Assembly (NCBI GenBank): GCA_950097015.1
Contig: CATNEN010000001.1
Span: 13,888,001-13,952,000, forward strand
Source: Macrostomum hystrix
Taxonomy: Eukaryota; Animalia; Platyhelminthes
Length of the DNA: 64,000 bases
Direction: 5' to 3'
Part shown: positions 3,151 through 27,930 of the stretch, piece by piece
Position numbering within the stretch: the first letter of the stretch is position 1
Layout: every line of letters starts with the position of its first letter
Position numbers and translations under genes: made by a program
Notes under the pieces: generated by a model
Seen by the model: only the letters and a program-made list of their open reading frames with translations
Database searches by the model: none
What the model was told of the DNA's origin: nothing

Positions 3151-4966
3151 ATGGAAATGCGAATAATAGCAGCAGTTGCTCTTCTGCTTGTTCGCACATT
3201 CGGTGAGTACAGAGCTCTCTCATTTGACGCTCAGTTATAGCTTTTTTATTACTTCAGTAAATTGAAACGTTTCATATTGCCCTTTCATCTCTGACCTGAG
3301 ACAGACACAATGAGTGGTACTGAAAGCAGCAGAGTTTTCAGTCCGGAGACCACCGGCTTCATCGCCATGAATGACTCGGTGAGCAGCAGTCTGGTCAACC
3401 AGTCCGGGTTCCGCTCGGCTGCCGAGTGCCTGTACTGGTGCGATGACAGAGGCTGCGCTGCCGCAGTGCTGAATGAGACCAGCCGCGTCTGCCAGATGCT
3501 CGTCATCAACGATGAGTCATCGGGTCAGCCTGGGCCGAACGGCAGTCACGTGACGAGGCAGCTTGGCTCGCCAACCGACGGAGCCGTGAGGCTGTGGAAG
3601 TCGGATGACTTCGAGCAGCAGCTTCGGCCGCGACTTTTCTGGCGAGTTTTTGGAAGTAAGTAAAAATTCGGTTGCAGGAAGCACTCAGCCAATGAAAAGT
3701 TATCTAAAATTTTCACAGATTCGGACATTAGCTGGTTTCATGTAGTTAGATATTTAGATATTTTCTTTGCTGACATACTGCAAAGGGCTACTGGAAAATT
3801 CCTTGCAAGTACTGCAGTTTAAACTAGCTGCATTCTAGGCGTCGCGAATTGAACCTTAGACATTTAACTACTTGTCCCCACGAAAAGTTTAGAAACACAT
3901 GGAGTTGATTAAGCTTAAAAGTTTAAACACACACGTATAGAATCGCTCGCAGCTGACGCGTTGACACCCGATCTCTCTCACTGTCTCATGCCGCTCCGAC
4001 TCACCAAACAGACAGCAGCTCCGGCCGGAACGGATCGGTTCAGCTCTTCTCCGCGCCTTTCGCTGCCTGCTTCCGCATCGAGGCCTTCGGCGCTGCTGGG
4101 GGCAGAGTGTCTGGCATCTACTCCGGACTAGGCGGCAGGGGCGCATCAGCCGCTGGGAGCTTCTGGCTCGCTGCTGACACACGACTGGACATTGTGGTCG
4201 GACAGGCTGGCGGCGACACAGGCTGCGGATTCGGCGCAGGGGGTGGCGGCGGCAGCTTCGTGTACAACAGCAACGACACCGGCAGTCCTTGGCTGCTCCT
4301 GGCTGCTGGAGGAGGCGGAGGGGCATCTTGGAATTATGTTAAGTGAACTAAATAACTGCTTGTGAATCCAGTTAATCACTGTTGCTTAAATCGAGTCCCT
4401 TTGAATCGCATTGGAATCTCCTGTCTGATGAGCACGCCAAGTTGATGATACCGTGTCAAATTTCAGGCGGCTTGAATGGTTCAAGCGGAACCAATGGCAC
4501 GGACAGCTGGCCAAAGGGCAGCTGCTCCGGCTTTGGCGGATCCGACGGTCAGCCGGGGCGGGTGTCGCCAACTCGCGATGCCAGCAACAGTCTCGCTTCA
4601 TGCGGCGCGGCAGGAGCCGGCTGGAGAGGCCCAGCCAAGCCCAGCAACGAGTCCTTCGAATTTCCCGGAGGTCCCGGGCTCAGCCGCACGGATGGTTGGC
4701 GTGGTGGAGCTCGCAGCGTCTCCTGTCCCACTGGCGACGGCGGCTTCGGTGGGGGTGGCGCTGGCGGCGGCTGCTGCACCGGCGGTCGCGATGGCGCCAG
4801 CGGCGGAGGAGGCGGCTTCAGTGGCGGCGGCGCTGGCACCGCAGTGACCCAGGTCGGAGGTGGCGGCGGCTCTTTCTGCAGCGGCTTCGGCTGCGTCACG
4901 GCCACCGGCGCCAACCCGGAGCTGCAGGGCCGCGTGCTGCTGAGCATATCTGCGGCCTGCGGCTGA
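3151..4966 (+). CDS. Secreted PAN/apple-like + ALK/LTK-like glycine-rich protein, paralog 1; exons 3151-3202, 3305-3655, 4012-~4338, 4467-4966
   Basis: Signal-peptide exon MEMRIIAAVALLLVRTF|gtgagt. Cys-patterned PAN-like exon (AAECLYWCDDRGCAAAVLNETSRVCQM). Gly-rich domain motifs IEAFGAAGG, GGRGA, LDIVVGQAG, GGGGGSFV, LLAAGGGGG, GGFGGGG. Phase-1 GT-AG introns match paralogs 2 and 3, except the exon-3 donor, which reads ttaagt. Confidence 0.8.
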
Positions 4967-7591: not shown

Positions 7592-10500
7592 ATGCGACTA
7601 ATAACACTTTTAGCCCTGCTCATTGTTCGCACTGCAGAAGGTGAGTCCCAGTTGGCATTTGAGCAATCCAGTCAATCCACCAGATGCTCCGGACGCGGAT
7701 CTTTCTGCATGCGTAGCATTGTGCCGCAGCATTTGCATGCTTCATTCTTCATTCACTGTTCGCAAATCATTTTCCATGATTTTGCACCTGAATCCACTTC
7801 CTCAGTGACGGCCTCGAGTGTGACGGTGTTCCGTCGAGATGCCAGCGGCTCCATCACTCTGAATGAGTCGGTGAGCAGCAGCCTGAGCAGTGAGTCCGGC
7901 TGCGACTCCGACATCAAGTGCGTGACATTGTGCGAAAAGAGAGGCTGCTCTGCCGCAGTGCTGAATGAGACCAGCCGCGTCTGCCAGATCGTAGTCATCA
8001 ACGATGAGTCATCGGGTGCAGCGGGTCCGAACGGCAGTCACGTGACGAGGCAGCTGGGCTCGCCAACCGACGGAGCCGTGAGGCTGTGGAAGGCGGATGA
8101 CTTCGAGCAGCAGCTTCGGTCCAAGAGCTTTCGACTCGCCGTCACAAGTGAGAAATAAACCAATGAATTTTGAATTTGGGATTCGGGTTGGAATCATTCC
8201 TTTACGAATTTGAAATAATCCTATCCAATTCTATTCCTGTGACTCATCCTTTGCGAAAGACCTCGTTTCTAGAACTGACCAGGACACCCAGTAGATGCCC
8301 GCATACAGTGCCTCTATCAGCCGTTTAGTATAGAAAATATAAAATTAATAATTTAAATATATTAAAAAAATCTGGTAAAGAAAAATCCCAGCGGGTGGCT
8401 GTGGCTCCATAGAAGACCAGAAGCAATTCACAGCTGATACTGGGATTGGGATTGTGGAATGGAGTTTGGGTTCTGGGAAAATGACGTGTGTTTGACAAGG
8501 CGCGTTTATGGTGCGTATTTATTGATTAGCAAGTTCAAAGGTTCTAAACGAAACTGAAAGTAGGCTCGAGGTCTTAAGACATCGCCGTTGGCGCGCAACC
8601 ATGAGGTGAGTGGGTCTGCTATAAACTCGGGTGCGTTGTCCGACACTACTGTCTCCGGAACGCCAAATCGTGTGAATACGGTTCTGAGGCAATGTATGAT
8701 GGAATCGGTTGCCCGGTCGCGGCATGGGAAGGCCTCTATCCAACGTGAGAAAGAGTCCAGGATGACAAAATGTTATCAGTGTTATTTACGTAGGCCCAAT
8801 CCATATGAATGCGCGCTGGAATGGGGTAGCCTGACGGTGACCAAAGATCACTGTCTTGACCATTATGTGGGTGTAGCTGATTGCAGCCGGGGCAACACAA
8901 AAGCTCCCAAACCGAATGACAGTCTAGCATCTGAATAAAAATTCACACCCTTTACGATGAACTAACTAACTGAACAAGATATTCATCAAGTCTTGTCGAA
9001 GACCCTGATGACAAGGACAACTAACATTGTTCTGTGTGAACCTCTACAGCGAATCCCTACTAGTTAAAAAAATAAACACAATACAATATAGTGAGCATTA
9101 ATAACCGGCATGGTTTCATGATGAAATTTTGTGAGCAGAAAAATGCTGCCTATATTGTTGGTTTTTGCCACCAGAATCTTCGACGAGAATTCTGGAATTT
9201 GTGAGTCTAGAAGTTGTTTCATCAGCTAGAGTGCCGTGTTCTGGATTACCAAGGCGATTGGTTATATATTTTAGGAGATGCAGAAGGAAGAAAAATCTGG
9301 GTATTTGAAATACCCCATGTCTTTCGAATGTTAAAGGAAACGGGAAGATTAATTAATTAACGCCCTTGACCCAACTGTAACAGCTTGAGCTTGTTGAGAG
9401 AACGTTGGCACTTGAAAAGTTTGCAGTTGAAACCATAGCAAACGAACTTGTAGGGAAAAGTACAACAGAGAGGGATCGACCGATAACAATAATACGAGTA
9501 TAAAATGAGACCAGCGCTAAAACTGGGTTTCAAAGCACAGCAGAAAAGGAGAGTGGGATTCCTTTGGTGGCAGTCCCGAATCCCAAGGATTAAAAAGAAC
9601 AAGCGAATTTAGTAAAGTGATCAGCGAGCAATATTGCAAAACAACGCTGACACAAGCGTGAATAAATATGGTAAATTATTAGCGAGATAAACGAAAAGAA
9701 ACATAACTAATAAATTCAGTTGGCGCAGAAAAAGAAGATTGCGAGTTGAGCACAAGAACGGTTGAAAAAGGGGGCTAAAGATAAAAACCATTGAGAAGAA
9801 AGAAGACAGGCTGAAAAGGACGGACCAGGAGAGATAAAGATAACAGAAACAGAACAGAAGGACCAAAATAAAATTTTCATCTTACTTCAACTTAACTCAA
9901 ATTGCTCTTTTTAAGCAATTTTTCAAAGCAAAGCAAAGCAATTTCACTTTGCCGATTAGCTTCTCACACCTGGCTCGTTACATGTGAGCAGCTAATCTCT
10001 CACACTGCCGCATCACTATTCGACTCACCAAACAGACAGCAGCTCCGGCCGGAACGGATCGGTTCAGCTCTTCTCCATGCCGTTCGCTGCCTGCTTCCGC
10101 ATCGAGGCCTTCGGAGCTGCTGGGGGCAACACAACACAACCGAGCCGCGGCGGCAGAGGCGCCTCATCAGCTGGGAGCTTCTGGCTCGCCGATGGCACCC
10201 GACTGGACATTGTGGTCGGACAGGCCGGTGGCAACTCGGCGTGTGGTTATGGCGCAGGTGGTGGCGGTGGCAGCTTCGTGTACATCAACAACGGCACTGG
10301 CAGTCCTCGGCTGCTCCTGGCTGCTGGAGGAGGCGGAGGGACATCTTGGAATTGGGGTAAGTGCACTGAAGCTCAGAAGAGAGTGCGCCATTCGAAAATA
10401 TTTGTTTCTCTCTTAGCAGTCACTGAGAGCTTAAAGTTTATAGTTGTTAGTGATTGGAATGGTTTAGGCTGTTGAGTCAGGGCTCATAATGCAGCCTTTG

Positions 10501-11725
10501 TAGGCCCAGAGCTCAAGCATTCACTGAATGAGCCTCAGCGACTGGTGCAGTCCCTCCAGGTTCAGCCAGGGTCACAGATAGCAGAGCAGGATAAGCGTCT
10601 GAGGCCAGGAGTTGCTGGGCAGGAAGGACCATCGATGTCGAGGGCTCTGATTGGCAGGCGTCACATTCAATGGACTTGAACTTTCAAAGCTGCAGTGCAG
10701 CAGATTTAGACAGAAGCAACATGGAGGGCAAATCCTGGCTGACAAGCGATTAATCGGTAAATTTAATTCTCTTCATTAGCCATCCAAAGCAGTTTGACGA
10801 AAAATTGCCAATCAAGAATATAGGAACATGGATTTCATCGCGCAAAAACTTGGCTGTTTAAAACATTTTCATTGAACACAGACAAAGTACACTCCCTTCC
10901 AGCTACTCAGTCCATCGTTAGTATTGAGTAGCTCGTATCAGCAGGGTTTTAGCAGACAGATTCGAGGCAGTTGGAGGACAGATCTGCGCATGCTCGAGGA
11001 ACTCGGAGATCCGCAGATAGGTTGTGAAATTCATGAGATAAAGAATTGAGCAGCTCATATTCGTACTAGCGTAGATTATTTTAGAACTACTGAAAGTGAA
11101 AATTGGCTTGTCCGCCAGTTTTACAGACTTTCAGCAATAAATTAGGAAACTGGCAGCTCACCGAGCGGTGTGCCACCTGAGCTGATTGACAGAAACCATG
11201 CAAACCCATGGAATATTCGCTGAAATCCCAGATGGCGTGAGTGGTGATGGCGGCATCAACGGCTCGGACAGCTGGCCGAAGAACAAATGGACTGGCGCTG
11301 GAGGAGCTGCCGGTCAGCCGGGTCTGGTGGCGCCCTATCGCTACAACTCCATCTTCTCGTGCGGCGGTGCCGGCGCCGGCTGGCTCGGCTCGGCCCAGCC
11401 CAGCAACTTGTCCTTCCCTGATCCCGGAGGTCCCGGTCTGAGCCGCATCGACGGCTGGCTCGGCGGAGCTCGCAACTCCTCCTGCCCCACTGGCGACGGC
11501 GGCTTCGGTGGAGGCGGGGCTGGCGGCGGCTGCTGCGCTGGCGAACGCATCGGTGCTAGCGGCGGAGGCGGCGGATTCAGCGGTGGAGGTGCAGGCACAC
11601 GCGACGGACAGGCTGGAGGTGGGGGCGGCTCCTTCTGCAGCGGCTTCGGCTGCGCCACCGCCACCGGCGCCAACTCGGAGCCGCAGGGCCGCGTGCTGCT
11701 GAGCGCGTCTGCGGCCTGCGGCTGA
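7592..11725 (+). CDS. Secreted PAN/apple-like + ALK/LTK-like glycine-rich protein, paralog 2; exons 7592-7640, 7806-8147, 10036-10356, 11232-11725
   Basis: All three introns are GT-AG, phase 1, and the frame is continuous; same motifs and C-terminus (GRVLLSASAACG) as the other paralogs. Confidence 0.88.
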
Positions 11726-12921: not shown

Positions 12922-13541
12922 GAGTTTTGGCGTGTTGATCAGACACACGAAACTCCCACTTCTAGACAATGGGGAACAATTGCCTAGGAATTTATAACAG
13001 TCACTTGAGACTTACTGCAATTGCTTCTTGTTCCTTGAGTAGTTTGTAGTCTTCTGGTCTTCGAAAGCCGGCGGTTCTTATTATCCTTGTTCTGGTCGAC
13101 CGTGAGGTTTCGAGTCTGTGTTTCTTGAGTCTTTGTAGTCTTGTCTTCTTTGTCTTCTTGGCAGCTGCTTGAGTTTGTCTGTTGGCCAATAAATGACGAG
13201 AGCGAATCAGATTACTTTTCGGTTTCCTCGAGCTCGGAATTCACAATAGAAACGTGCGCCCTAGTGAACAATTGAAATCTCTCGTGTATATCTCTAATAG
13301 GTCCTCCTGAAGAGCGTCTTCTTCGTTACCTCCGAAAGATAACGGATAACTCAAATCAAATCAATCAATAATCCTCTAGGAATGTATCCTAGGAAACAAG
13401 GAGGCTAGTAATCTATTAGTAATCTATTAGTAATCTATTTAACTCATTCCTAAAAATAGATTAAACGTTGTAGCTATGGTTTCCTTGTGACATTACTTTA
13501 AGCAGCGTGTTAAGCAAAAGCACATTTTACAACTCTCTACA
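12922..13541 (-). repeat. 3' LTR (620 bp, internally deleted)
   Basis: Matches 26904-27930 except that 443 bp are replaced by a 36-bp filler (13406-13441); one SNP noticed; begins TGTAGAG on the minus strand. Confidence 0.95.
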
Positions 13542-13556
13542 ATATCTCCTTTTTTT
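13542..13556 (-). promoter_or_regulatory. Polypurine tract
   Basis: aaaaaaaggagatat immediately precedes the 3' LTR TG on the minus strand. Confidence 0.8.
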
Positions 13557-13949
13557 ACGAAAAAATTCGTCCCGAATTTATTATTGACAAATAAAATTTT
13601 GGTATAAAGATGTAGGAGAATATACTGATATGCAACTTATTGTTGAAATAGTTGATAATTCGATTTAAAACTCACACCTAAAGCGTGAGAGTTAATAGCT
13701 CGTACCATCACCGAGCAGTAGCAATAATTGTCATTATGTATATCTATATATCCGCTACGAACGTATTAGTTAGTGGTAATTGTAGGCAAAATTGTAATTA
13801 AGAGGCGATAGTGAATGTAAGAAAAGTGTTGGATTTTCATTCACCCATAGATGATGTTGTTTAGGTGTGTTGGGTGTTGTCGCCTTATTTTTTCGACCAT
13901 CTTGCTTATCGGCCAAAAAAGTTTTTGCAGTTGTGTGTAGGTTATTAGT

Positions 13950-14462
13950 TTATTCGGTCCGTTCCATCAACATGAGGAAGGTGTCGAACGCCGTTGGTTC
14001 TCCTGGACTTTCAGCAATATTGTGGGCGAGCAGTAAGAGCCTTTGACGATGCGCTTTTAAACGCCATGGTATTGGCCATGATTTTATGTTACTCGTTAAG
14101 TCGTTTATGCTGGCCTCCTCGCAGTTATTTTCGTCTAGTAGGAGGTCTAGGTGTATGGGCGTCATGTAGGTGATCTTTGTAGTATTGTCCAACATCTTCT
14201 CTAAACAGTCTGGGCAGGAAGTGCTGTTTCTTCTTGCCATTGATTGTAAGCAGCTAAAACAACTCCAATATCGATTTTCGCACAATCGTATGTTGGGTTG
14301 TTCGTTGCATAGGACGCACCATACTCGGCTCCTGCGACACAGCGGACATGTAGGTAGTGGGCCCTGGCTTGTGCAGTTTAGACAGACTTTATGCCCCCAT
14401 TCGCATACTGGAACCAGATCTAGGCGTTCGTCGAGGCAGATGGGGCACAACTCTCGATTCAT
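13950..14462 (-). CDS. Accessory protein with two tandem RING-like fingers (copy B)
   Basis: CPICLD...CEWGHKVCLNC...CPLCR, then CVLC...CENRYWSCFSC...CPDC; acceptor tttcaacag directly precedes the ATG. Confidence 0.8.
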   Translation of the reverse strand: MNRELCPICLDERLDLVPVCEWGHKVCLNCTSQGPLPTCPLCRRSRVWCVLCNEQPNIRLCENRYWSCFSCLQSMARRNSTSCPDCLEKMLDNTTKITYMTPIHLDLLLDENNCEEASINDLTSNIKSWPIPWRLKAHRQRLLLLAHNIAESPGEPTAFDTFLMLMERTE

Positions 14463-14756
14463 CTGTTGAAATATTTTAATAATATTCTGATTCAGAGTTA
14501 TTATACTGGTATGTTTCTTGAGATGGTAGTATATATGATAGATCCTCGTTTCGCAAAATTAGTGTGGGAAGAATTGTACAGAAAATGGGACAGGGATGAA
14601 GATTCATGTCATAGACAAGATTAAACAGTTTTTGTGCAATATCATGTATGGACAATTGTCTAAGCTTAGGGCCGTATTGCAATGAGTATCGTACGCTCGT
14701 ACAATGTTTTTACGCGTTTTGTGAGCAATTCGTGGTATAGGCCATGGTTTTAGAAG

Positions 14757-15134
14757 TTAAATTATCTTATTAGAGGAAAAAAGAGTATAGGTTAATGGAT
14801 GAAGTTGGCAACCATAATTTGGTTTAATACGCGCAAGTTTGTTATAAATCATGAATAGTGGGGTATTATTGCAAACAGGACATTGGAAAATGGCTCGATA
14901 GGCAAACTTCTTCATGCATTGCGGACACATAAAATGTTGGTTTTGACAGTATTGTACTGTTCGCCATGAGTTACATATCATACATTGGCGGAGATTTCCA
15001 CGGCACAGAGGACAGTTTTTTAATGGTTTTTTGTAGTGTGCGAGGCTTAAGCAAGAACCGCAAACATGGTGTTTATTGACACATATACATGGTAGTTTAC
15101 ATGAGAATTCTGTAAGACAGACAGGACAGTCCAT
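14757..15134 (-). CDS. Accessory protein with two tandem RING-like fingers (copy A; probable premature stop)
   Basis: CPVC...CVNKHHVCGSC...CPLCR and CMIC...CQNQHFMCPQC...CPVC; the frame continues past the stop as LLKPWPIPR, matching SWPIPW of copy B. Confidence 0.8.
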   Translation of the reverse strand: MDCPVCLTEFSCKLPCICVNKHHVCGSCLSLAHYKKPLKNCPLCRGNLRQCMICNSWRTVQYCQNQHFMCPQCMKKFAYRAIFQCPVCNNTPLFMIYNKLARIKPNYGCQLHPLTYTLFSSNKII

Positions 15135-15264
15135 GGTAGTGTTCGCGAAAATTTTGTGGGCGTTTGCAGAGAGCAGAGGTTTAGTCGCCTTTTACGACAA
15201 GCTTGAGAAGCTGTAGTGCTATTCTTAATCCCGGTCACTACACGGGGAACAATAAACGAGTAAT

Positions 15265-18200
15265 TTAACGAGAACGTAGGTTATACGTCTGCTTATTTGG
15301 TGGTGTGTTTGTGGTTTGTGTCTCGGCATGTGCTGTTGCAATGTGCGTGTTTGTTGTTTTTGTGTGTTCTGGATTCTGTAACGTTGGAAGGAATGTAGTG
15401 TCCTTAGTGATGCGTTTTAAACGTTAAATGTGAACATAGAACTGAGGTTGATGTGGATCCTGGATATTTGCAAGGCGTGCTGTTGTTGCGGATATCAGTG
15501 CTGTTACACGGAAAGGTCCTTTGTATTTGAAGGCATGTTTGTGCGTATGCTGTGCCGGGTAGTGTAGGTAGACGATATCTCCCACTTGTAAAGTAAAGAT
15601 GCATGATTACTTGTTGTAGGTACGGTAGATTGATTGTCGAGATTATGTTTTGCAATTTGCCATGCTAGGTGTAATTGAGAAGTGAACTTTTGTAGTGTCG
15701 TTGGCGTGTCAACATATTGAGATGGCAGTAATTTCTGAACTAATAGGTTCGGTGGTTGAAAGTCTCTAGAGAACATCAGAATGAATGGTGTGTTCTCTGT
15801 TGAGCGATGAACTGCGCTGTTGTAGGCCATTGTCACTGATTGTATGTAAATAATCCAATCTTCAGGTTGCTTATAGACAAAGTGTGTCAACATTTCATGT
15901 AGGTTTCTGTGAAATCTTTCGACGAGGTTTGCTTTTGGATTATATGTCGAGGTGAATATCTGTTGAATATTCAGTAGTTTGGCGGCCTGTTGAAATAATT
16001 GTAATGTGAATTGTGTGCCATTGTCAGATGTTAGCGTCTTCGGGTTCCGAATTTGCAGATAATTTCATTATAGAAGGCCATTGCTACTGTTGTCGCTGTG
16101 ATGTCAGGTATCGGAATGGCAACGGCGAATTTCGAGAAAACATCCAAGGCTGTAAAAATGTAGTTGTAGTCGATAGAGTGTTGTCGAGCCGGTGGTAGTG
16201 GTCCGGTAATGTCAATTGACACTGTGTCCCATGTAGTTGTCTTCGGCACTGATTGGAGTTCAGGTTTTTGTCGTCTTTCGATTTTTGTTGAAGCACATGA
16301 GTGACATTGTATGCAGTACTTGCGAATGTCTAAATTCATTGTTGGCCAAAAATAGAATTAGACTACTCTATGGATTGTTTTCTTGGCGGATAAGTGTCCG
16401 GCTAATGGACTATCATGGAGTTCGTGTAGGATCGCTGAACGGAATGTGTATGGTAGGTACAGTCGCGGAATATTGTTGTACACCCAGTAGAGTGCGAGTT
16501 CTCTGAAAACTAGACTAGTTTTGTGCTTTCGTAAGAATTGTTTTTCGATTTTTGTAAGTTATTTTTCCGTTTCTTCATTATCTTCTTGTATGGCTTTGTA
16601 AAAGGAATCGTCTTGTTGTGCTTTCAACAAGTCTTTTATGGTTGGAATTGGATGAACTGCATTGATCTCGTATGTTCTGGACAGTGCATCAGCGGCTTTA
16701 CTCATTGGCCCTGGTTTGTAAACCAGGTGAAAGTTGTAGTCCTGTATTTGAGGACCATTCGGATAAGTCTATTGTTCGTCTGTCCTTTTGTTTTAACAAC
16801 GTGAGTCAGCGGTGCATGATCTGTGCGAATGATACGCTCGTAGTTGGCAGTGGTGATCCATAGATGTAGTAATGGAATTGTCGAAGAGCAAACAGAACAG
16901 CTAGTAGTTCTCGTTCAGTGGCTGACCATTTTGTTTCGTTTGTTCTTAGAGCTCTGCTGATGTAAGCAATCGGTTTTTCTTTCTTTGGTTCCATTTCCTG
17001 AAGTAGTACTGCTCCTAATCCACTTCCTGATGCGTCTGTTTCTATGATAAAAGGTTTGTGGAAGTTCGGGTGTTTGAGAAGAGCATCACTAGTTAGTTGT
17101 TGTTTGATTCTATCGAAACTTTCCTGTTGTTCCGCTTTGCAGTTGTCTTCTTTCCACTTTGGAATTTTTAGTAGTTCGTACAATGGTTTAGCCGTTTGTG
17201 CAAAGTTAGGTAGGAATTTTCGGAAATATTGTGCTAGTCCAAGGAATGACTGCAGTTTGGTAATTGACGTAGGTTTCGGGAACTTCTTGACCTTGTCGAC
17301 GTTATTTGGGTCTGGTGATATGCCTCGTGATGAAACGTGATGTCCAAGATATCGGACCGAATCTCTGCAGAATTTACATTTTGTTGGTTGCAGTTTTAGA
17401 CCTTGTTGTCGGAGTAAGAAGAGAGCTTGTTCCATGACTTTTACTAGTTGTTCAAAGTTATTTCCAGAGGCAAGGATATCATCAACATAGTGAAGCAGAT
17501 TTGTACATCCGGCTAGCATATAGGCTGTAAGACGGCTCATTGTTGCTGGTGAGTTGGAGATTCCCATTGGACTTCTCTGATACGCGAAAACTTCTCCTTT
17601 GTAAGTTTTGAAGGCAGTGTATTGTTTTGAGTCTTCTTCAAGTTCGATTTGCCAGAATCCATGTCGTAGGTCAAACACAGTGAAGAGTGTTGCCGTATTG
17701 AGTCGTGCTAGCAGTTCTGAGATTTTTGGTAGACTTTGTTGATCGGTGGGAATGTACTTATTTAGGACTCGGAAATCACAGACGAGTCGTCTTTCGTTTG
17801 TTTCTTTCTTTTCGACAAGAAGGCAAGGTGAAGAATATGCTGAGACGGTTCGTTTTATGATCCCTGCTTTAAGCATTTTTTCTATGATTTCATCGAAATG
17901 TTGTTGTAGGTGTTTAGCAACTGGATATGGTTTACATTGGATTGGTTCTTGATGAGGTAGTAGTTCAATCTTTTGCTTGATATCACGAGCACATCCGATG
18001 TCGTAATCGTGATGACAGAAGACGTCGTTATACTTCCACAATAGATCTTTAACTTGTGCTTTTTGTCCTTCGGTGATTGGACTTTGAGAAAGATCAATTT
18101 GTTGTAGGAATTTTTGTTTAGACATTTTTGTTGTTGTGTCTGGTTGGATGAGCATTACTGAAGCTTGTGTGTTGAGATGTCCCATGCATGTTCCTGCATA

Positions 18201-18947
18201 GATTTTTACTGGATGTTGATTTGGATTTATAATTTGTACTGGGATGTTTCTTTCCTTTGTGATAAGGACTAGAGCCGTTGGTATTAAAACTTCTTTTGTT
18301 GTGAGGATCTTCTTTCTTGGTTCAAATATCATAGCTTCTTCGACATCGTCATGATTGGCGAGGTATGCTTTAACCCAACATGTACTTTCCGGTTGTATGA
18401 AAACATCTTGTTTAATATGTACTTTTGGTTGAAGGTGAACTTGGCTGACTAAGGGATGTTCCACATTGTCCAGTTTGAATGTTTGTTTGTTGAAATCAAA
18501 TGTTAATGGTGGATTCATCTGCCGAAATGTGTCGATTCCAATAATAACATCTTGACTTGGAAGATGGTCAATAACAAATTCTTGTACTAGAAGTTGCTTG
18601 TTTGCAAGTTTAAGTGATATATTCACTTGTCCTAGGATATTAAGTGCATGTCCTCCGGCTCCGGCGACAGCGATTGAAGAAGGTCGCATATGAAGTTGCA
18701 ATTTGTCGTAGAGTCTTTTTGTGATGACTGTGATTGAACTTCCTGAGTCGAGAAGTGCTTTACTGGGCATGTTGTTTATAAATACTTGAGCCATCGCTCT
18801 ACCCATATTGGCTTGCAAGGTGCAAATGTAATTTGCTGGCCATTTTGGATCCGTTGGTAGACGAGGAGATGTCGGCGGTGGTCTCGCTGTCCTGATTTTA
18901 ATTTTTGGGTAAATATTTAATCGTTCTGGTTCTGGTGCTGTTGGCAA
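15265..18947 (-). pseudogene. pol: pol: aspartic protease, RT, RNase H, integrase (several frameshifts/stops after ~16830)
   Basis: LLDSGS, YVDD, ETDASG..GAVL, TDHAPL, ADALSR, HHCC zinc finger (HDSP..GH...CIQCHSC), DITGP / DVFSKF / SDNG / VERF, GPF motif, ends YNLRSR*. Confidence 0.95.
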
Positions 18948-20884
18948 TAATTGTTTTCCTTGATCTTGTAGTAGAGTTTCTTCATTTTTTCGTTGGGTGT
19001 AGTAGTTTCTTGTTGTTTGTCAATTTGGAAAATCCGTTGTTTTGCTGGATAGGCTCGTGCTACACATCGTACTGCTGTGATAAAGATCATTAGTGCAAGG
19101 TGAATCCATACAATGCATGCACTGGAGAAGATGAATCCCTGATAGTAACTTCCTTTTCCTTGGAGTAAATCGAGAAAGCTATTCGACCAAAAGGATCCTA
19201 TTGCGTTATGTATGATGAATCCTGTCGAAAAGGATTGTTCTTTGTCCTGTTGGTTGTTTTGGGTAAAGAGCTTTTTCATCATCTGTCGTTGGGCGATAAA
19301 AACTTGAAGAAAATCATTAATTGTCCATCCTAGTGTGATTTCGTCAAGTTTGATGTCACTAAATGGTTTATAGGTGGTCTTATTTATCTTGAGCTGTAGG
19401 TCCGCTAGTTCGTATGTTTCGTCGATAATAGCTTGCATACCAGTGATGTTTGTAATGTGCCCAGTTGTTGAGACCTTGTGTAGTTTATTATTAATGTTGA
19501 AATAGTTGGCTGCGTCAGCGCAGGGTCTCGGGATTACAGTTCCAACAATTATATTGTGCACAGTATCTAGAAATCCTTGAATTCGTTTCCCATTGTAGTA
19601 AGCTTCGATTCGGGGTTTATCGTAGCACGTAGTTGATGTGTTTGATGGCAAGATATTAAAATGATGTAGTGGCACACATTTGTAGATCAACAGATGGCCA
19701 TAGATGGGGATAGCTAGAACATCTCGAATGCCTGTGATTTTTCTGAATGTAGACGTTGGATTGACATAATAATTTTGTCGTGCATAGTTAAGTGCAGTTT
19801 CGTGCATTCTACAAGTCAGTTGGATCAGGGATTTGTGCAAGTAGTTGAGTTCTTTATGTAGGTTATGTTCCATTGCTGCGAGTTTTGCCGCTAGTAGTCG
19901 TGCAGAAACCATTGATGGTCTTTGTATTTCTCTCCTTTTCCGAGCTGTGTTGGTTCTTGTTGAATAAGTACCATTTACCAGTCTCATAAAGGTATCCTCA
20001 TCCATATCACGTAATTCGAGCGGTATCTCTTGTTCAGACACTAGAAGTTTTTTGGAGTTATCCTTACCGTTAATTCGGAGATACTTGGGTTTTTTGGAAA
20101 CGTTAGAGCAAAATCCGACGTACTCGCAAGGAAAGTATTTGACAGTAGATTTCCTTTTATTGTATGGTACTTCTGGAATTTACAATCAATATTTGGTTCA
20201 ACTTTCCATGCAACGAAGTACTGTCGTTGGTATTCTGTAATCTCATAGTGTGGGTTTTGTCGATGTTCAATTTGCCATTTGTAATTTTGATGATATGTTG
20301 GAGCCAGCGGTACTTGCCATACGAGCGTACTGCTTCGTTCCAGAGTTTTGCTGTTTCGCAGAACCCTGTGTTGTACTTACAGTCTTCAAGTGATAATTGT
20401 AGAGATTCCATGTTTTCAAACGGATTGTGGTAAAACAAGACTTTCCGGATCAAGTAACTGTTTGTCGTGGTGTAACGTGGCTATATGTATTCGTTCCAAT
20501 GGACATATCTACCGTTCGCACTGTTCTTGGTTCTGAAGAGTTGAGAGTTATCAATCTTTTCATCGGCATGAAGTTCTCCATCTTTAGAAAATAATGTTTG
20601 GTTCCACTGAAGGCATTCTTCTTGTGTGACAGGCAGTGCTGTTTGCCAGAATCGGATGCGATTCCATTGGATGTACCAAACCTTTTCTAGTTCATGTTTA
20701 TCTCGGAAACAGACAATACCATATTGTCTATGTTTCTTTGTGTTTGCTTTGTAGACATCGATCGTTAATGGAATAGGTTTTGTTTGATTAGTTTTAAAGT
20801 AACTGCACTTGATTTCCGTTGGTATGTTGTAAATGACTGGTTGGATGTTGGCATCAGTAGGGCATATCATGGGCACTGAAGATA
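18917..20884 (-). pseudogene. env: env-like glycoprotein ectodomain + TM (class III fusogen-like by motif recall); one stop (20481-20483) and about two frameshifts (~20225, ~20080)
   Basis: Cys-rich (PMIC, EEC, CKYNTGFC, W..E...CKF, YKC, CY..P, GFLD...II...PC), N-x-S/T sites, furin RKRR (19942-19931), C-terminal hydrophobic segment FIFSSACIVWIHLALMIFITAV. Confidence 0.8.
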
Positions 20885-22188
20885 CGAGGAGCGTACTGAA
20901 AGTTTTGAGATACGTCTGACTTATAAGTTGCAGCTGCGCGCCTTTTAATGTACATACTGTACCACCTTAAAAATGAATGAGTATAAATTTTCAGCCTTTG
21001 CGCTCTTGTCAATTTTTCACAATCACTCTTCAAAGTCAATACCCCCTACCAAACTGTACTCGCTCCAATGGAGTTGACAAACCGCGACTTTCGTGCCATG
21101 ATTGTTTATGACCAGCGTAAAGGTCTCACGCAAGAGCAATGCGTTGAAAGTTTACGTGCTGCCTTTGGAGACCAAGCCCCTTCACGTGCCACCGTTTTTC
21201 GGTGGTACAGTGAATGCAAGTGGGGCCGGAGCAGCCTTGATGACGAGCCTCGGTCGGGACGTCCAGTTTCCGCTGTCACGGACGAAAACATCGCTGCCGT
21301 CCGGAGAATGATCGACGAAGACCGGCGAGTGACCTGTGCCGAGATCAGGGAGGCTCTTGGCATTGGATCGGCAGCGGTTACGACCATCCTACACGACAAG
21401 CTGGGAGCCTCCAAGCGATGTGCCCGATGGGTGCCCCACAACCTGACGGAGGACCAGAAAGCGGAGAGGGTGCGTTGGTGCGAATTCATGCTTGAAACGA
21501 CTCTGGCACCTCGAAGCGATGCTGGGAGATTGTCACAGGTGATGAGACCTGGGTCTACCAGTACGACCCGGAAACCAAGCAGCAGTCGGCAGTTTGGCTC
21601 CTTCCGGATGATGCCACTCCAACGAAGGTCAAGCGGGCCCGCAGCGTCGGGAAGCAGATGGTGGCGACTTTCTTCAGCCAGGCTGGCCACCTGGCGACTG
21701 TAGCGCTCCAAGACAGGCGTACAGTCAATGCCGACTGGTACATCAACCAGTGCCTGCCGCTGGTGTTTGATGCGTGGCGCAGACGCCGGCCGCGCACCGG
21801 ACTTCGTGGCCTGCTGCTGCACCACGACAATGCCAGTGCGCACACGGCTGCTGCAACATTGGCATTTCTGACCGAGAATGGAGTCCAGCTGGTGACGCAT
21901 CCTGCATATTCGCCGGACCTGGCACCCTGCGACTTCTTTCTCTTCCCTTTGGTGAAGAACCAACTGCGCGGGACTCGGTTTGAGAGCCCTGAAGCAGCAA
22001 GAATCGAGTTCGAGCGGGTGGTTTCAGCAGTGCCTGAAGAACAGTGGGCTGGAGCCTGGACGCAGTGGTTTCACCGAATGAGGAAATGTGCACAAGCTGG
22101 TGGCAACTACTTTGAAAAATTGTGACAGAGAATTTACCTCAGACACTTTTGGTTTTGGTGCATCTCAAAACTTTCAGTACACCCCTCG
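20885..22188 (+). mobile_element. mariner transposon (1304 bp) inserted in env
   Basis: 27-bp TIRs cgagg(a/g)g(c/t)gtactgaaagttttgagat with 2 mismatches; TA duplication at 20883-20884 and 22189-22190. Confidence 0.97.
21068..22125 (+). pseudogene. mariner DD34D transposase, frameshift near 21495
   Basis: HTH N-terminus, WVPHNL, GDETW, HHDNA, YSPDLAPCDF motifs split over two frames. Confidence 0.95.
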
Positions 22189-22190
22189 TA

Positions 22191-22932
22191 GTACAACTGT
22201 CGGGAGAAGTAACATCACGATGGCTGAAAACAACCATCTTATCAGTATGTGCCTTTTCTTTTTCTTCACTTTGGTTGGTGGTTTATTGGTGTTTATTGAA
22301 TATCGTTGGTCTTCTGTCTCTCCAATTGGTGGAGTAAGGCGCATAGAAAAGTGCCATGGGTTGTTGCATCCTGATGGTCTGGTTTGTTGGTTATACCAGG
22401 TTGGTTTTTTCATATCGAATGTTAATGGTGTATTGAGAGTTTGCGGTACGGTACTTGTAGTATCCGTTCTCATGTCGATCCACGTTGTTGGTTCATCATA
22501 GACATGATCGTCATCCTTTTCCATCGACGTACCGTAGTCACTTTTAGTCTGAGAAGATCTATCGTGCTTCGAGTAGTACGATTCGGTATTCACTGCTTTA
22601 TTGTGTCCATTCTGTCCTTCCGATAAATTGACAGGGGTTATGTTTTCGTATTCGAGATCAGGTTTGTACTTGGGTGTCGAAGGCGGTGTCTCTGTCAAGT
22701 CGATGTCATCGACTAAAATTTGTAGCATGCTGATGCTTTCTTCAGACGTGTTGTGTGAATTTGTCGCACTGTGGTCCTCATTACTCCTTTCTGTGGATGT
22801 GGACAATTCATCTATGCCTTCTTTGTTTTGCAGAACTTTTGAAAGATCGCTCATCGTTGGAATTTTGAATAATCCTTTGATTTGTTGTTGTAATTGCTTT
22901 CGTTCAATGTGTTGACAGGTGTTGAAGATTAT
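22191..22932 (-). CDS. Gag-Env linker ending in basic residues + internal signal sequence (segment between the two nested insertions)
   Basis: Open frame ending KVKKKKRHILIRWLFSAIVMLLLPTVVL; in frame with gag upstream and env downstream after removal of the insertions. Confidence 0.8.
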
Positions 22933-25124
22933 TAATTATTAAAATTATTAAATAAGATTATTATTATTATTATCAAAAAGATTATTGTTTACCGATTGTA
23001 CCATATGACTAAGCTTATTGTTACTGTGGTTTGGCATACTCGACTTGAAGCATTATTTAACGCTGAAGCATTGTTTAACGCCGATTGTTTAATCCCGATT
23101 GTTTAACGATGCCTCATCGAATCAGAAACGTTCTAGACTTCACTGAGTGTGTATTGTCTATGGCTACAACTGTGCCATATGGAGTGAAAAGCAGTAGAGG
23201 AATACATAGGTTGGACTCTGCTAAGCTGTGCCATAGACTATTGGAGCGAAAAGGAGTAGAGAAATGCAAAGGGTTTGCGTTTAAAAATACAAGTTATAAG
23301 TTTCACTGTCTGCACTGATTCCAAAAATGCATCTAATACATTGGAAAAACTTGCCGACCGACTCTTTTAACGGAGTATCTGCTAGCGAAATGGATTTTCT
23401 TTCAATGCTGAGTGCAACGGACCACTCGGAGGACGCTGATCTACTGGAATTTGTCAACTTCTTAGAAGATCCCGCCCGTGAAGATCAGTCGGTGCTGGAC
23501 ATATCATTACCGGATCTACCTGGTGACGCACCACTGTCGGTTGACGATCTCGATCGCATTGAAATCGATTCGCTACCCAAGAATACGCGAGAACAGATGT
23601 TCCAACATGGAAAAGCATTTGTGGAGTTTCTACGAAGACAAACTGAAGTGTCCCCTGAGACGATTTCGCAGACCATGCTGAATGAGTTTCTATGTTTCTA
23701 CTACTTTTCGTTAAAGAAAGCTGACGGAGGAAGGTACGCACCTGCGTCCTTGGTTTGCATCCGTGCCGGCATTCAGCGCTACTTTTGCATCGTTCTTAAG
23801 CGTTCTGTGGATATCATTTCTGGAGGAGAGTTTGCTGCCGCTAACAGAATGCTACGCGTCAAAGTACGCGAATACAATGGATCTGGTGCTTTCAGAAGAC
23901 AATATCCGCCAATTGAGGAAGGAGACCTAGAGCGATTGCGGAAATACTTTGATAGAAGCACAGCAGAACGTGTTCAGGATGAAGTGCTCTTCACATTACT
24001 CTATACATTAGGTGAGCGCGGCCAAGAACATCTTAAATATCTCAAGAAGAAGGGCACCTTGGTAGAAGGAATAGATGCTGATAGCCAACCATATCTGAGC
24101 CTGCCAGATCTGCCAACGAAGAATCAATCGACTGATCCAACGCGTGCTAAGAACAACTCAGCAAAGCAAGCTCGCCTCTATGGACAGCAGCGAGATCTTG
24201 TCGTCGACTACTTAAAGCTGCTACCGGAGAACACAAAAGATTCATCCTTCTTTCCACGCCCACTGGCAAACGATGGAAGCGGTAACCTTCGTTTTTCAAG
24301 TAACCAGGTTAGAGGCATTAATTGGCTAGCTAACTTCAAGCGTCACCTGAGCGAGATCTGCAAGTTGTCAAAAATGTACACTAATCATTGCATCCGGGTC
24401 ACGCGTATTTCGGATTTGCATGAATGTGGACACAAGCTGGACGAAATCATGACTATTACTGGGCAGAGGGCCAAGTCGACTGTCCGGCGTTACTTGTCGA
24501 GAAGACGCGATCGGTCCATTAAACAAGTTTCGATTGCTCTAAGTAAAGCGCTGGAGCGACCACTAGCAACTACAAGTAACTTGAATACCGATGTCAAGCC
24601 GTTATGCGATGGGGCTGCCGAAGGTGCTGACGATGTTGTAGCGCCAATGATGGTAATCGAGTCTAGCGTCGGAGCCTCTGCCACTAGTGCTGAGGCGGCG
24701 GAGCCGGGGATTGTGCATGTGACAGCCAACGACAGCGAGAAAAAAACAACAGTCGTCCTAAATTTCAACGGAAAATTCGAAAACTGCAGCTTCCAAATCA
24801 AAGGGACGTAAGTCGCCAAGTTTCGTCATTTCAATATAGGGAATAAACTATATCGAGGTCCCATAACAATGTGAACGGAATAGTAATATTTATTGCTTGT
24901 ATTGTAAAACACGTTATTAGTTTTGTTAATGCGAAATGTTGTTTTGATTTGTTTTAATTCCAAAATATAACTCAATATAGCTAACCAATAGTCTATGGTT
25001 AAATCTGCGAAACATCGTTAAACAATCAACTTCTCTGTGAAACGTTGTTAGTATGCTAAACCATAGCAACAATACTTTCTCTTGGCGAGGGAGTCGATAA
25101 CTCTTCAAACAATGAACCCATTAT
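22933..25124 (+). mobile_element. Crypton-type tyrosine-recombinase DNA transposon (2192 bp including one attat copy)
   Basis: Flanked by direct attat (22928-22932, 25120-25124); removal restores the host frame; subterminal inverted blocks; YR ORF. Confidence 0.85.
23327..24811 (+). CDS. Crypton tyrosine recombinase (DUF3504-like)
   Basis: FYYFSLKKADG..YAPASL..IRAGIQRY, GERGQEH, YTNHCIR, ITGQR...RRY; intronless 494 aa. Confidence 0.9.
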   Translation: MHLIHWKNLPTDSFNGVSASEMDFLSMLSATDHSEDADLLEFVNFLEDPAREDQSVLDISLPDLPGDAPLSVDDLDRIEIDSLPKNTREQMFQHGKAFVEFLRRQTEVSPETISQTMLNEFLCFYYFSLKKADGGRYAPASLVCIRAGIQRYFCIVLKRSVDIISGGEFAAANRMLRVKVREYNGSGAFRRQYPPIEEGDLERLRKYFDRSTAERVQDEVLFTLLYTLGERGQEHLKYLKKKGTLVEGIDADSQPYLSLPDLPTKNQSTDPTRAKNNSAKQARLYGQQRDLVVDYLKLLPENTKDSSFFPRPLANDGSGNLRFSSNQVRGINWLANFKRHLSEICKLSKMYTNHCIRVTRISDLHECGHKLDEIMTITGQRAKSTVRRYLSRRRDRSIKQVSIALSKALERPLATTSNLNTDVKPLCDGAAEGADDVVAPMMVIESSVGASATSAEAAEPGIVHVTANDSEKKTTVVLNFNGKFENCSFQIKGT

Positions 25125-26381
25125 GCAGCTACTGTCGTTGCTTATGTTGTCGTTCTGTATTTTCTGTGTTGACTCATTGATAAGGTAAACATTTTTATCT
25201 TCTGTATCCTCTGTTTCCTTTTGTGGCATGGGCGGCTCTTTCGAATGGTCGCTTTCGATTATAGTAACATAGGCTGCACCATCGTTGTCCAGATGAAGGT
25301 CATTGATTTCTTGCTCCTTCTTTTGTTTCTCAAGTTCATCAAGAACATTGACGGAAAAGTCTGGCATAAGATCTTCAATCTTGAACTTTGGTTCAATAGT
25401 TTGAGTGTATTCAGGCTCAATAGCTTGAGTGTATTGTCGACGGACTTGCGTTGGTTGTCTTGGAGGTGGAGGATTTCTTTGTTGACGATAAGGTACGATG
25501 GCATTAGATGGTCTGCTATCTTGTTGTCGACTATTTGTCCAATTACGGTTTGAAAGCTGTCTTGGAGGACGAGTCCAATTGGTCTGTCGATTGTCATTGT
25601 ATGAACGTGGGTTGCCACGTGATCTGCAGTCTCTAGCATAATGACCGATCCTTCCACAGGTATAGCAAGTTGATGTGTGTAAGTATCTTTGTTGTGGTTG
25701 TGGATAGGAATACCTCTGCTGTTGTGGTACAATAGCAGAAGTTTGGTGTTGCTGCATGAGTTTGCTTAATTGTTCTGCTAGTTGTGTCGTGTCACTATTA
25801 TGAGTAGTCATAAGATGCATTCCACAACGGAGCAATTGTTCCTCTGTGTTAATAGTTTCTCTCAGCAGTCTATCTCGCAAAGTAGGCTGTGCGTTGTTAA
25901 TCACATGAAGTATTAAGCTTTGTTCCCGGTCTTCAAGACGTTGTCTTTCTCGTGCAGCTGATTCGGCAGGTCCTATAGGTTGAGCTCCTTGATCCAATGG
26001 TGGAGGCTGATGTAATGCTTTGACGATCTTACGGATGTCATCAACAAAGGTGAGAAAACTCTCAGTGGAACTCATTTTTCGATTATGAAGTTTATGAAGG
26101 AGTACCGATCTGTTTGTTCCACATCGTGCGAATTGTGCTCTCAGTTGGGTAACTAGAGCTTGATAATCTTGTTGTACTGCAGCTGTCAATTTTCCATAGA
26201 TTTCTCGGGCTGTTCCTTGTAACAGTGGAGGTAGGAGGAGTGCTTTCTCTGCATTCTGTAATCCATATTCGCGTGAGACCAAATCAAAGTGATCAATGAA
26301 TTTGTTGAAATCTTTATCCATTGTATACATTCCGACCGTTTCCCTAATGTCACGATGGACCTGATAGTTTCTTCGTGCCAT
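25125..26381 (-). CDS. gag: gag (capsid + CCHC zinc knuckle), interrupted at its 3' end by the Crypton
   Basis: Retrotransposon gag-like helical region (LLPPLLQGTAREIY), CYTCGRIGHYARDC; first ATG at 26381. Confidence 0.92.
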
Positions 26382-26880
26382 ATTCGCAACTGGGTACGGA
26401 AATAATTCAAGTTCTGGATCGATGTTCAAGGGTTCGTCCAGATTGACTTCTCTGACAAGATTTAGTGTGAATAAAAAGTGTGTGTGTGCGTGTGCGTGTG
26501 TATCAACAAAATGAAAATGGTTTACACGGGGGAATTATTTACTCAGGACAAGGGAGAAAATTTTATACAAGGCAGGGAACGTATGCCGCTTTCAACGCTG
26601 AAAAGGGGTTATTGAAATGAGAGCCGGTGAGTTCAGTCGCGCGATTCCCAGGTGTGCAAACAATAGAGCGAAGTGACGCATGTGGCTTATGTGCAAACAA
26701 TATCCGGTAGGGACAGCAAAATTTTTCAGAGAGATGACGCAACAAAACTTTTATGAAACGGTGGATCAAAGGCAATAATGATGAGTTGCAAAAATTTTTT
26801 CTTTTTACTTTTTTGTTAAAACGATTCGAAAGTTGTAACGCAAAAAAATTTAGTATCTCGGCCTGGGCTTGATTGCAAGG

Positions 26881-26897
26881 CCTGGGCGAGATCACCA
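26881..26897 (-). promoter_or_regulatory. Primer-binding site, probably tRNA-Val
   Basis: TGGTGATCTCGCCCAGG 6 nt inside the 5' LTR match; resembles the complement of eukaryotic tRNA-Val 3' ends (from memory). Confidence 0.75.
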
Positions 26898-26903
26898 GTT
26901 AAA

Positions 26904-27930
26904 GAGTTTTGGCGTGTTGATCAGACACACGAAACTCCCACTTCTAGACAATGGGGAACAATTGCCTAGGAATTTATAACAGTCACTTGAGACTTACTGC
27001 AATTGCTTCTTGTTCCTTGAGTAGTTTGTAGTCTTCTGGTCTTCGAAAGCCGGCGGTTCTTATTATCCTTGTTCTGGTCGACCGTGAGGTTTCGAGTCTG
27101 TGTTTCTTGAGTCTTTGTAGTCTTGTCTTCTTTGTCTTCTTGGCAGCTGCTTGAGTTTGTCTGTTGGCCAATAAATGACGAGAGCGAATCAGATTACTTT
27201 TCGGTTTCCTCGAGCTCGGAATTCACAATAGAAACGTGCGCCCTAGTGAACAATTGAAATCTCTCGTGTATATCTCTAATAGGTCCTCCTGAAGAGCGTC
27301 TTCTTCGTTACCTCCGAAAGATAACGGATAACTCAAATCAAATCAATCAATAATCCTCTAGGAATGTATCCTAGGAAACAAGGAGGCCTTTCTCAAATGT
27401 ATCGACGATATGTGGCTCTCGTAAACTTAGTTCAATTCAACAACTATTGCTAGCAATAAATTACTCTGTCTAGTAAAGCGCTCACCACTTGTCTTTGCCT
27501 CAGAGATGAGTCCTCTTCTTCGTAAGATGTTTTGAAGTCCGGTGGACCGCTCCGAGTCTGAATTTTCAGCTCAGATTTTCGCTTGTATTTATAGTAAAAT
27601 TTTGGAAAAAACCGGTTCTACTACCGGGTGTTTACTTAGGTCACACATATTTGTTTAGTGAGTCATGATTGTGAGTTTTACCATATTTGGAATATTGTGT
27701 AAATACAGATACAGAAACCGATGAGTCATAATTGTTTGTTTTACCATATTTGGAATTCAAGCAAATACAGCTGTCAAGAACCGGTTCTCCGGTTTCATGT
27801 CACATGACTTTTTTCTAAAAATAGCGAATGACTCATTCCTAAAAATAGATTAAACGTTGTAGCTATGGTTTCCTTGTGACATTACTTTAAGTAGCGTGTT
27901 AAGCAAAAGCACATTTTACAACTCTCTACA
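26904..27930 (-). repeat. 5' LTR (1027 bp)
   Basis: Direct repeat of 12922-13541; starts TGT on the minus strand. Confidence 0.95.
27586..27835 (-). promoter_or_regulatory. Putative U3 promoter: TATA + two CArG boxes + three AP-1 motifs
   Basis: TATAAATA (27593-27586); ccatatttgg at 27681 and 27744; tga(g/c)tca at 27659, 27722, 27829. Confidence 0.55.

Follow-up and report, generated by a model that had tools for sequence, protein, structure and literature searches.

Two anciently diverged double-RING genes behind pol in a decayed gag-env-pol errantivirus of Macrostomum hystrix

A decayed errantivirus of the flatworm Macrostomum hystrix, located within the 64 000-nt stretch of contig CATNEN010000001.1 analysed here (hereafter the window), carries two genes, designated A and B, between its pol gene and its polypurine tract (PPT), and each gene encodes two RING-like fingers. 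There is strong reason to regard A and B as selected accessory genes of the element family. The fuller interpretation, which we favour and hold tentatively, is that they are anciently diverged accessory genes likely to encode RING E3 ubiquitin ligases, which would tag host proteins that restrict the element.

Genes A and B are both encoded on the minus strand, with the pol stop codon (15424–15426) on one side and the PPT (13542–13557) on the other, so that the initial annotation of two same-strand ORFs between these landmarks holds in coordinates and strand. The open part of gene A (14757..15134) runs from an ATG at 15134 to a premature stop at 14757–14759 (125 aa) and takes in RING1 (residues 3–44), RING2 (residues 51–88) and the start of a helical domain. 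Its broken 3′ part (14476..14756, minus strand) contains a WPIP motif immediately behind the stop, a frame break adjoining a mariner-type footprint (14692), and a C-terminal segment in a different frame. The open part of gene B (13950..14462) runs from an ATG at 14462 to a premature stop at 13950–13952 (170 aa) and comprises RING1 (residues 6–42), RING2 (residues 49–86) and a helical domain with WPIP in frame; the common WPIP, lying past an in-frame stop in A, had been claimed at the outset and is seen in the translation of both genes. A probable remnant of the last helix of B lies in a different frame at 13841..13949 (minus strand), where the likeness to the C-terminus of a Macrostomum lignano relative (P0001, described below), noted by eye in three-frame translation, is weak and tblastn gave no match at E≤1. 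The fingers take the form C-x2-C..C-x3-H-x2-C-x2-C..C-x2-C, two per gene at the N-terminal end and only 6–7 residues apart. A-RING1, A-RING2 and B-RING1 are complete; the exception among the four to the C-x3-H spacing is B-RING2, in which Tyr replaces His to leave 7/8 zinc ligands. In the whole window, both strands included, a strict RING pattern finds just three matches, all of them within the 1.86-kb 3′ region, and 2000 shuffles of that region yielded none; the RING patterns of the 3′ region are not due to chance.

Premature ends are present in B as well as in A, and both genes are broken in this copy. With the relative P0002 as tblastn query, residues 8–149 match 15131–14709, spanning the stop of A, and residues 155–206 match 14694–14530 in a different frame (E 7e-4 in the window; pairwise E 4e-7). 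As the matches continue past the stop and in another frame, gene A would once have comprised about 200 codons or more, ending beside the start of B. Both genes are without introns, in sense orientation to the element and closely packed, the last frame of A stopping 14 nt short of the ATG of B. The ATG of B comes directly after a 3′-splice-site-like run ending in CAG, and that of A stands in a strong Kozak context.

Contigs from five (X1–X5) of the eight public sequencing runs listed, representing two studies, were compared with this copy. At the stop of A the contigs differ from the window in all five runs, and at the stop of B in all three runs covering it (X1, X3 and X4). The end of pol is linked to A by an X2 contig (14510–15543), the end of A to the start of B by an X1 contig (14379–14578), and B to the 3′ region by an X3 contig (13645–14175). 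Because both stops read differently in the contigs, which also connect pol, A and B, the RING cassette is clearly part of a multi-copy element family and no private insert. The depth of X1 contigs is about 180–530 on the RING genes versus about 420–430 on pol and env, depth not being copy number. X1 has no coverage at 14825–15004 and X2 and X5 have none over most of B; the records are filtered and such gaps prove nothing. Assembly error was rejected as the whole cause of the breaks, for we judge stops and repeated footprints to be atypical of it; single-base indels may be errors.

The conservation across element copies that had been named as a check was not borne out by these contigs, which mostly sample dead copies. 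Among the differences listed (40 of 92), the 22 sites in the open parts are spread 6/8/8 over codon positions 1/2/3 (A, 4/7/7 at 18 sites; B, 2/1/1 at four sites), a count that excludes differences at the stops or beyond the open parts; these listed differences look neutral-like. Several contigs have frame breaks of their own, so the compared contigs are probably dead copies; within X1–X5 no fully open A or B was seen end to end and no gapless contig extends over a whole gene. Contigs of X2–X5 diverge from the window at 13587, 14175, 14510 and 14748 and then continue unlike it, and as some stop matching within B or just past A, B is not constant in the family. From these departures within B or just after A, sister forms may have the LTR and PPT in common and carry other 3′ regions, the accessory slot being variable. 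Contigs of X2, X3 and X5 (3/4 runs) also join across 15543–20466, revealing a form with an internal deletion that removes most of env and pol; this form retains the gene A region, with its own frame break in A, and its depth is above that of the full interior in X2 and X5.

The element itself (12922–27930, minus strand) has the order gag, nested ORF, env (split by a mariner), pol, A, B, PPT. The gag gene (25056..26534, minus strand) encodes a zf-CCHC zinc knuckle (E 4e-7), and pol (15424..19019, minus strand, in several frames) matches gag-asp_proteas, RVT_1, RT_RNaseH_2, Integrase_H2C2 and rve, in the Ty3/gypsy order PR-RT-RNase H-IN. An env-like gene for a gB/chuvirus-type fusion protein lies between them (18917..22935, minus strand), in several frames and interrupted by the mariner; one broken piece of it matches PF24664 Monjiviricetes_fusion (E 5.5e-6; 25.1 bits, just short of the cut-off, 27), and a search with the env piece gave no PDB sequence match. 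From contigs joining across the mariner we infer that 22935–22190 is the N-terminal part of env. This stretch encodes about 250 hydrophilic, acidic residues that precede the hydrophobic signal-like stretch of env and have no Pfam match, and would be a long leader or a separate domain. On these sequence features the element is a decayed member of the gag-env-pol Ty3/gypsy errantiviruses with gB-type env. The intact continuous ORFs that serve as a criterion in the available part of PMC13524379 are absent, pol, env, A and B all being broken, and it is mainly the env that makes the element retrovirus-like, in a class already published there.

The 5′ LTR (26898..27930, minus strand) adjoins a 12-nt primer-binding site (PBS; 26886..26897, minus strand); the PPT adjoins the 3′ LTR (12922..13541, minus strand), which is missing the final few bases and a stretch of about 440 nt in U3 that is present in the 5′ LTR. 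As the left end is without its last bases, the target-site duplication is unreadable. The LTRs are identical at 484/484 and 99/100 bases and so differ at 1/584, yet the interior contains two nested elements and many breaks and is 2–3% off the commonest X1 contigs. Either recent in-trans retrotransposition of a defective copy or LTR homogenization would account for near-identical LTRs around a decayed interior. The mariner nested in env (20885..22188, plus strand; HTH_48, Transposase_1, termini and TA duplication) is no part of the element family, and contigs of X1, X2, X3 and X5 join across it. The other nested ORF (23300..24811, plus strand), between gag and env, encodes 503 aa with a weak QRICH1 match (E 0.02) and no PDB match, and from its motifs may be a Crypton-like tyrosine recombinase. 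The same TA-flanked 10-mer occurs at 14692–14701, 16833–16842 and 20320–20329, three times in the window against 0.02 expected; all three copies lie within the element and resemble the ends of the nested mariner, and the contigs of other runs differ there. They are likely to be mariner excision footprints, this copy having been hit by mariners at least four times. Elsewhere in the window, the element is flanked by host genes in tandem that encode glycine-rich proteins (GGGGAGGG..C motifs; 3957–4966 and 9996–11725), with no Pfam match for the piece tested; a minus-strand stretch at 8506–8942, which we take from its motifs to be a decayed integrase fragment, belongs to another LTR element; and 43700–47700 is occupied by a strongly GC-skewed tandem array with a 21-nt unit, present in about 175 copies or more.

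A profile built from A and B gave 14 hits among 1.84 billion representatives, five of them at E≤1e-10 (P0001–P0005); the remaining nine (P0006–P0014, E above 1e-6) are single generic RINGs or unrelated and were left out of the family. All five relatives have the double RING, and four have the helical domain with W-P, P0004 (130 aa) being without it. P0001 (UniRef100_A0A1I8G201), a gene model of Macrostomum lignano, contains two full double-RING-plus-helical units in tandem and a portion of another, with 65% identity between units, and may represent a tandem cassette resembling A-B that was merged in the model. P0002–P0005 are Logan proteins on contigs of 1–2 kb. A word-indexed homologue search with B alone gave no match and one with an eight-row alignment gave two, both already in the family; there were no homologues among 5347 longer candidates (weak evidence), no relatives in IMG/VR viral contigs and no match to the family in phage records. 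The metagenome locus L001 was discarded, its match being due to chance and lying antisense to a bacterial ClpP gene.

The proposed paralogy of A and B is confirmed by identity at 31/86 aligned positions (E 4e-15). The nearest relative of gene A is P0002 (54% over 104 aa) and that of B is repeat 1 of P0001 (37% over 174 aa), and the 36% identity of A and B over 86 aa falls below the best relative of each elsewhere; the tree agrees with both affinities, on long branches and with no starred fork. Because each gene is nearer to a relative elsewhere than to its neighbour, the pair is old. Over 85 codons pS is 0.90 (saturated) and pN 0.45, and 15/16 zinc ligands are kept between A and B versus 17/69 other aligned residues (Fisher p 4e-7). 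The retention of 15/16 ligands while synonymous sites became saturated points to long past purifying selection on the zinc ligands. Such old selection, together with the family-level links in the contigs, upholds the claim that the element carries A and B as paralogous accessory genes. A recent host-gene capture, named in advance as a ground for rejecting that claim, was itself rejected: no near-identical host gene was found among the 1.84 billion representatives, and the nearest relatives are just 37–54% identical.

That the fingers are RING-like is agreed by Pfam, PDB and fold matches, all of them weak and local. The commonest Pfam match is Sina_RING, in 6/8 alignment members, and all Pfam RING matches are below curated cut-offs. 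In profile comparison with the PDB, finger 1 matched SIAH1 (E 1e-4), TRIM21 and the protein RING2, and finger 2 matched BRE1 (E 6e-4), Mdm2 and Cbl. A RING1 profile recovers the second finger of all eight sequences, which is consistent with an origin of RING1 and RING2 by internal duplication. An AlphaFold model of the homologue P0003, made with the eight-row alignment (pLDDT 80, pTM 0.68), has two fingers and a four-helix C-terminal part; a model of B from a two-row alignment (pLDDT 39) was too low for use. The P0003 model fits the RINGs of RING1B, BIRC7 and TRIM21 locally, at 2.4–2.7 Å over 47–49 columns, and Foldseek returned nothing at E≤0.001, with RING-local matches of query TM-score 0.25 or less; the cross-brace RING fold is thus seen in the model of a homologue, in local fits with E above 0.001. 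In SIAH/SINA proteins the RING precedes TRAF-type zinc fingers and a substrate-binding domain of beta-sandwich (TRAF-like) form, and RBR ligases have an IBR domain between two RINGs. A SIAH orthologue was rejected on the second RING, the all-helical C-terminus of the model and the Sina_RING match below cut-off, and an RBR ligase on the 6–7 residues between the fingers and the lack of an IBR Pfam match in the eight members.

RING fingers are typically those of E3 ubiquitin ligases. The first finger ends in CPxCR in all eight sequences, which are 25–54% identical in pairs, and the second finger in none; we take the Arg after the last Cys to be the linchpin position. Residues other than Arg are also found there in active E3s. 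The first loop of RING2 has eight residues, one short of the textbook minimum. Given the linchpin Arg in RING1 of 8/8 sequences, the products of A and B are probably RING E3 ubiquitin ligases. The linchpin Arg stabilizes the closed E2~ubiquitin, according to the available part of PMC12326332. A predicted complex of human UBE2D2 with the double RING of P0003, computed without an alignment, scored 0.19 against a mark of 0.34, a value that weighs neither for nor against E2 binding.

It is possible to put these observations together in a working model. As both genes sit behind the pol stop, A and B would be made from subgenomic RNA. RING1, SIAH-like and with its linchpin Arg in CPxCR, would bind and activate E2~ubiquitin, and RING2, which follows after six residues and does not have the Arg, would support it structurally or as a pseudo-dimer partner. 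Choice of the substrate would fall to the divergent four-helix C-terminal domain, and two paralogues so far apart make two host targets the simplest reading. These would be silencing or restriction proteins of the host, whose removal should benefit the element most. DNA viruses deploy RING ligases against host defences, and by analogy with these ligases a host-defence protein is a plausible target, one that we put forward with some reserve. More speculative is the wider proposal that flatworm-type gag-env-pol errantiviruses are complex endogenous viruses, in which a dedicated 3′ cassette of double-RING E3s, a hitherto undescribed family (RING-RING-helical bundle) that diversified by duplication, would destroy host silencing or restriction proteins in the manner of Vif/Vpx; those proteins hijack a host cullin ligase, whereas the E3 would here be self-encoded.

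Alternatively, and in our opinion rather improbably, A and B may be E3s or adaptors for the element's own cycle, acting in Gag or Env ubiquitylation, in ESCRT budding or trafficking, or in export of unspliced RNA. With its env the element would have to bud, and CERV is a gypsy accessory zinc-finger protein serving Cer1 RNA export (PMC10309623, available part). The MIT domain of ULK3, which binds ESCRT-III, can also be superposed on the C-terminal bundle (Z 6.5, rmsd 2.2 Å, 76/87 residues), but this score is tied with those of many unrelated, generic bundles (best Z 6.8), the meaningful level for helical bundles being near 13, and the Atlas gave no usable match for the C-terminal domain. Furthermore, the internally deleted form retains the A region without most of env and pol, although A is frame-broken there, and two paralogues at 36% identity would suit two outside targets better than one self-substrate.

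It is still less likely that A and B are non-catalytic RING adaptors or decoys, whether arenavirus Z-like or dominant-negative SIAH/TRIM mimics, that bind host proteins or E2s. Such a role would suit a second finger that is without the linchpin Arg in 8/8 sequences, has lost one zinc ligand in B and weakly matches arenavirus Z (E 0.08–0.1; rank 38 in the viral fold search), but the first finger keeps its CPxCR throughout the family despite the low pairwise identities, and the best sequence and fold matches are to RINGs of active E3s. Least probable of all is passive cargo, a drifting host or DNA-virus/Polinton RING pair whose selection signal predates capture: it would fit the neutral-like listed differences, the death of both genes here, the nearest Atlas clusters (RING proteins of Preplasmiviricota and Nucleocytoviricota, scoring 0.89 or less and leads only), an interior about 1.1 kb shorter by table-row estimate in the Macrostomum lignano element discussed below and the fact that P0001–P0005 are known only as proteins, but not the lack of any conserved host gene of such architecture among the 1.84 billion representatives (nearest 37–54% identical), the lack of relatives found in IMG/VR contigs, the intronless, sense-oriented genes packed 14 nt apart, or a pol and env equally broken in the same copy.

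The initial annotation had interpreted A and B as anti-silencing or anti-restriction accessory factors that would make this a complex retrovirus-like element. Their accessory status, age and past selection stand, with no near-identical host capture; the RING matches are weak and local, and the neutral-like listed differences and dead genes of this copy weigh against the interpretation. The counter-defence of animal LTR elements against piRNA silencing and restriction factors is a largely open subject, and to our knowledge few counter-defence genes have been described for such elements. If A and B do act on host defences, the substrates of their RING ligases would show which defences are important in an invertebrate that regenerates and has pluripotent stem cells, the genus Macrostomum being open to RNAi and transgenesis, and complex retroviruses with accessory genes would be extended to ancient invertebrate errantiviruses. 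The present value of the cassette is that of a well-founded lead, its function being predicted only and precedents existing for both class and cargo.

With regard to known systems, env between gag and pol is a feature of errantiviruses of Nematoda, Bryozoa and Platyhelminthes with HSV/gB-type ENV (Chary and Hayashi, PMC13524379, as far as available), and the element resembles these in gene order, chuvirus/gB-type env, Ty3/gypsy pol and multiple copies. Mlig_errantivirus_2, a Macrostomum lignano element with 16 copies (PMC13524379), has a 12-nt PBS identical to that described here (supplementary file 2 of the same source); its LTRs (864 nt) and interior (about 8.9 kb) are shorter than those of the present element (about 1030 nt and about 10 kb), as judged by table row only. 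By that table row rather than by sequence, it is a relative of the element. In the available text of PMC13524379 just GAG, ENV and POL are annotated, and the word 'RING' is absent from its main text and from the seven supplementary files searched. The closest precedent in cargo is the Burro/GYPSM1 giant gypsy of planarians, with AIR1 RING-Zn-finger-like, MATH, BIR and Ubi/SUMO-like domains, for which tampering with host systems was proposed by its authors (PMC6431247, available part). Like the element described here it is a flatworm gypsy with env between gag and pol and with cargo linked to ubiquitination or apoptosis; unlike A and B, most of its domains form part of a 4,900-aa polyprotein or of an upstream ORF, and no stand-alone double-RING gene behind pol is described for it in that part of the source.

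Other extra genes behind pol are CERV of Cer1, expressed from a spliced mRNA and with a cysteine-rich loop (PMC10309623), and the bdelloid ORF3, with GDSL and DEDDy (PMC5408684); as far as these sources were available, they share this position with A and B and differ in fold and function. 'RING' occurs 0 times in the available text of PMC5408684 and 0 times in that of the main text of a Macrostomum LTR survey (PMC12801592). SIAH/SINA proteins share with A and B the C-x3-H spacing and CPxCR of RING1, SIAH1 being the best PDB sequence match (E 1e-4), but A and B have a second RING and a helical bundle and are without TRAF-type zinc fingers or a TRAF-like domain. Viral RINGs such as herpesvirus ICP0, the giant-virus SIAH/TRAF-like proteins and the adintovirus oncoid are likewise small and encoded by the virus and populate the viral fold and Atlas results, but the matches are limited to one RING (query TM-score 0.25 or less) and come from DNA viruses, not retroelements. 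No description of stand-alone double-RING genes in any LTR element was found in full-text searches, whose coverage of subscription journals and Repbase is thin. The element class, the presence of extra ORFs and ubiquitin-related cargo are already known, and what appears to be new is the double-RING cassette in an errantivirus.
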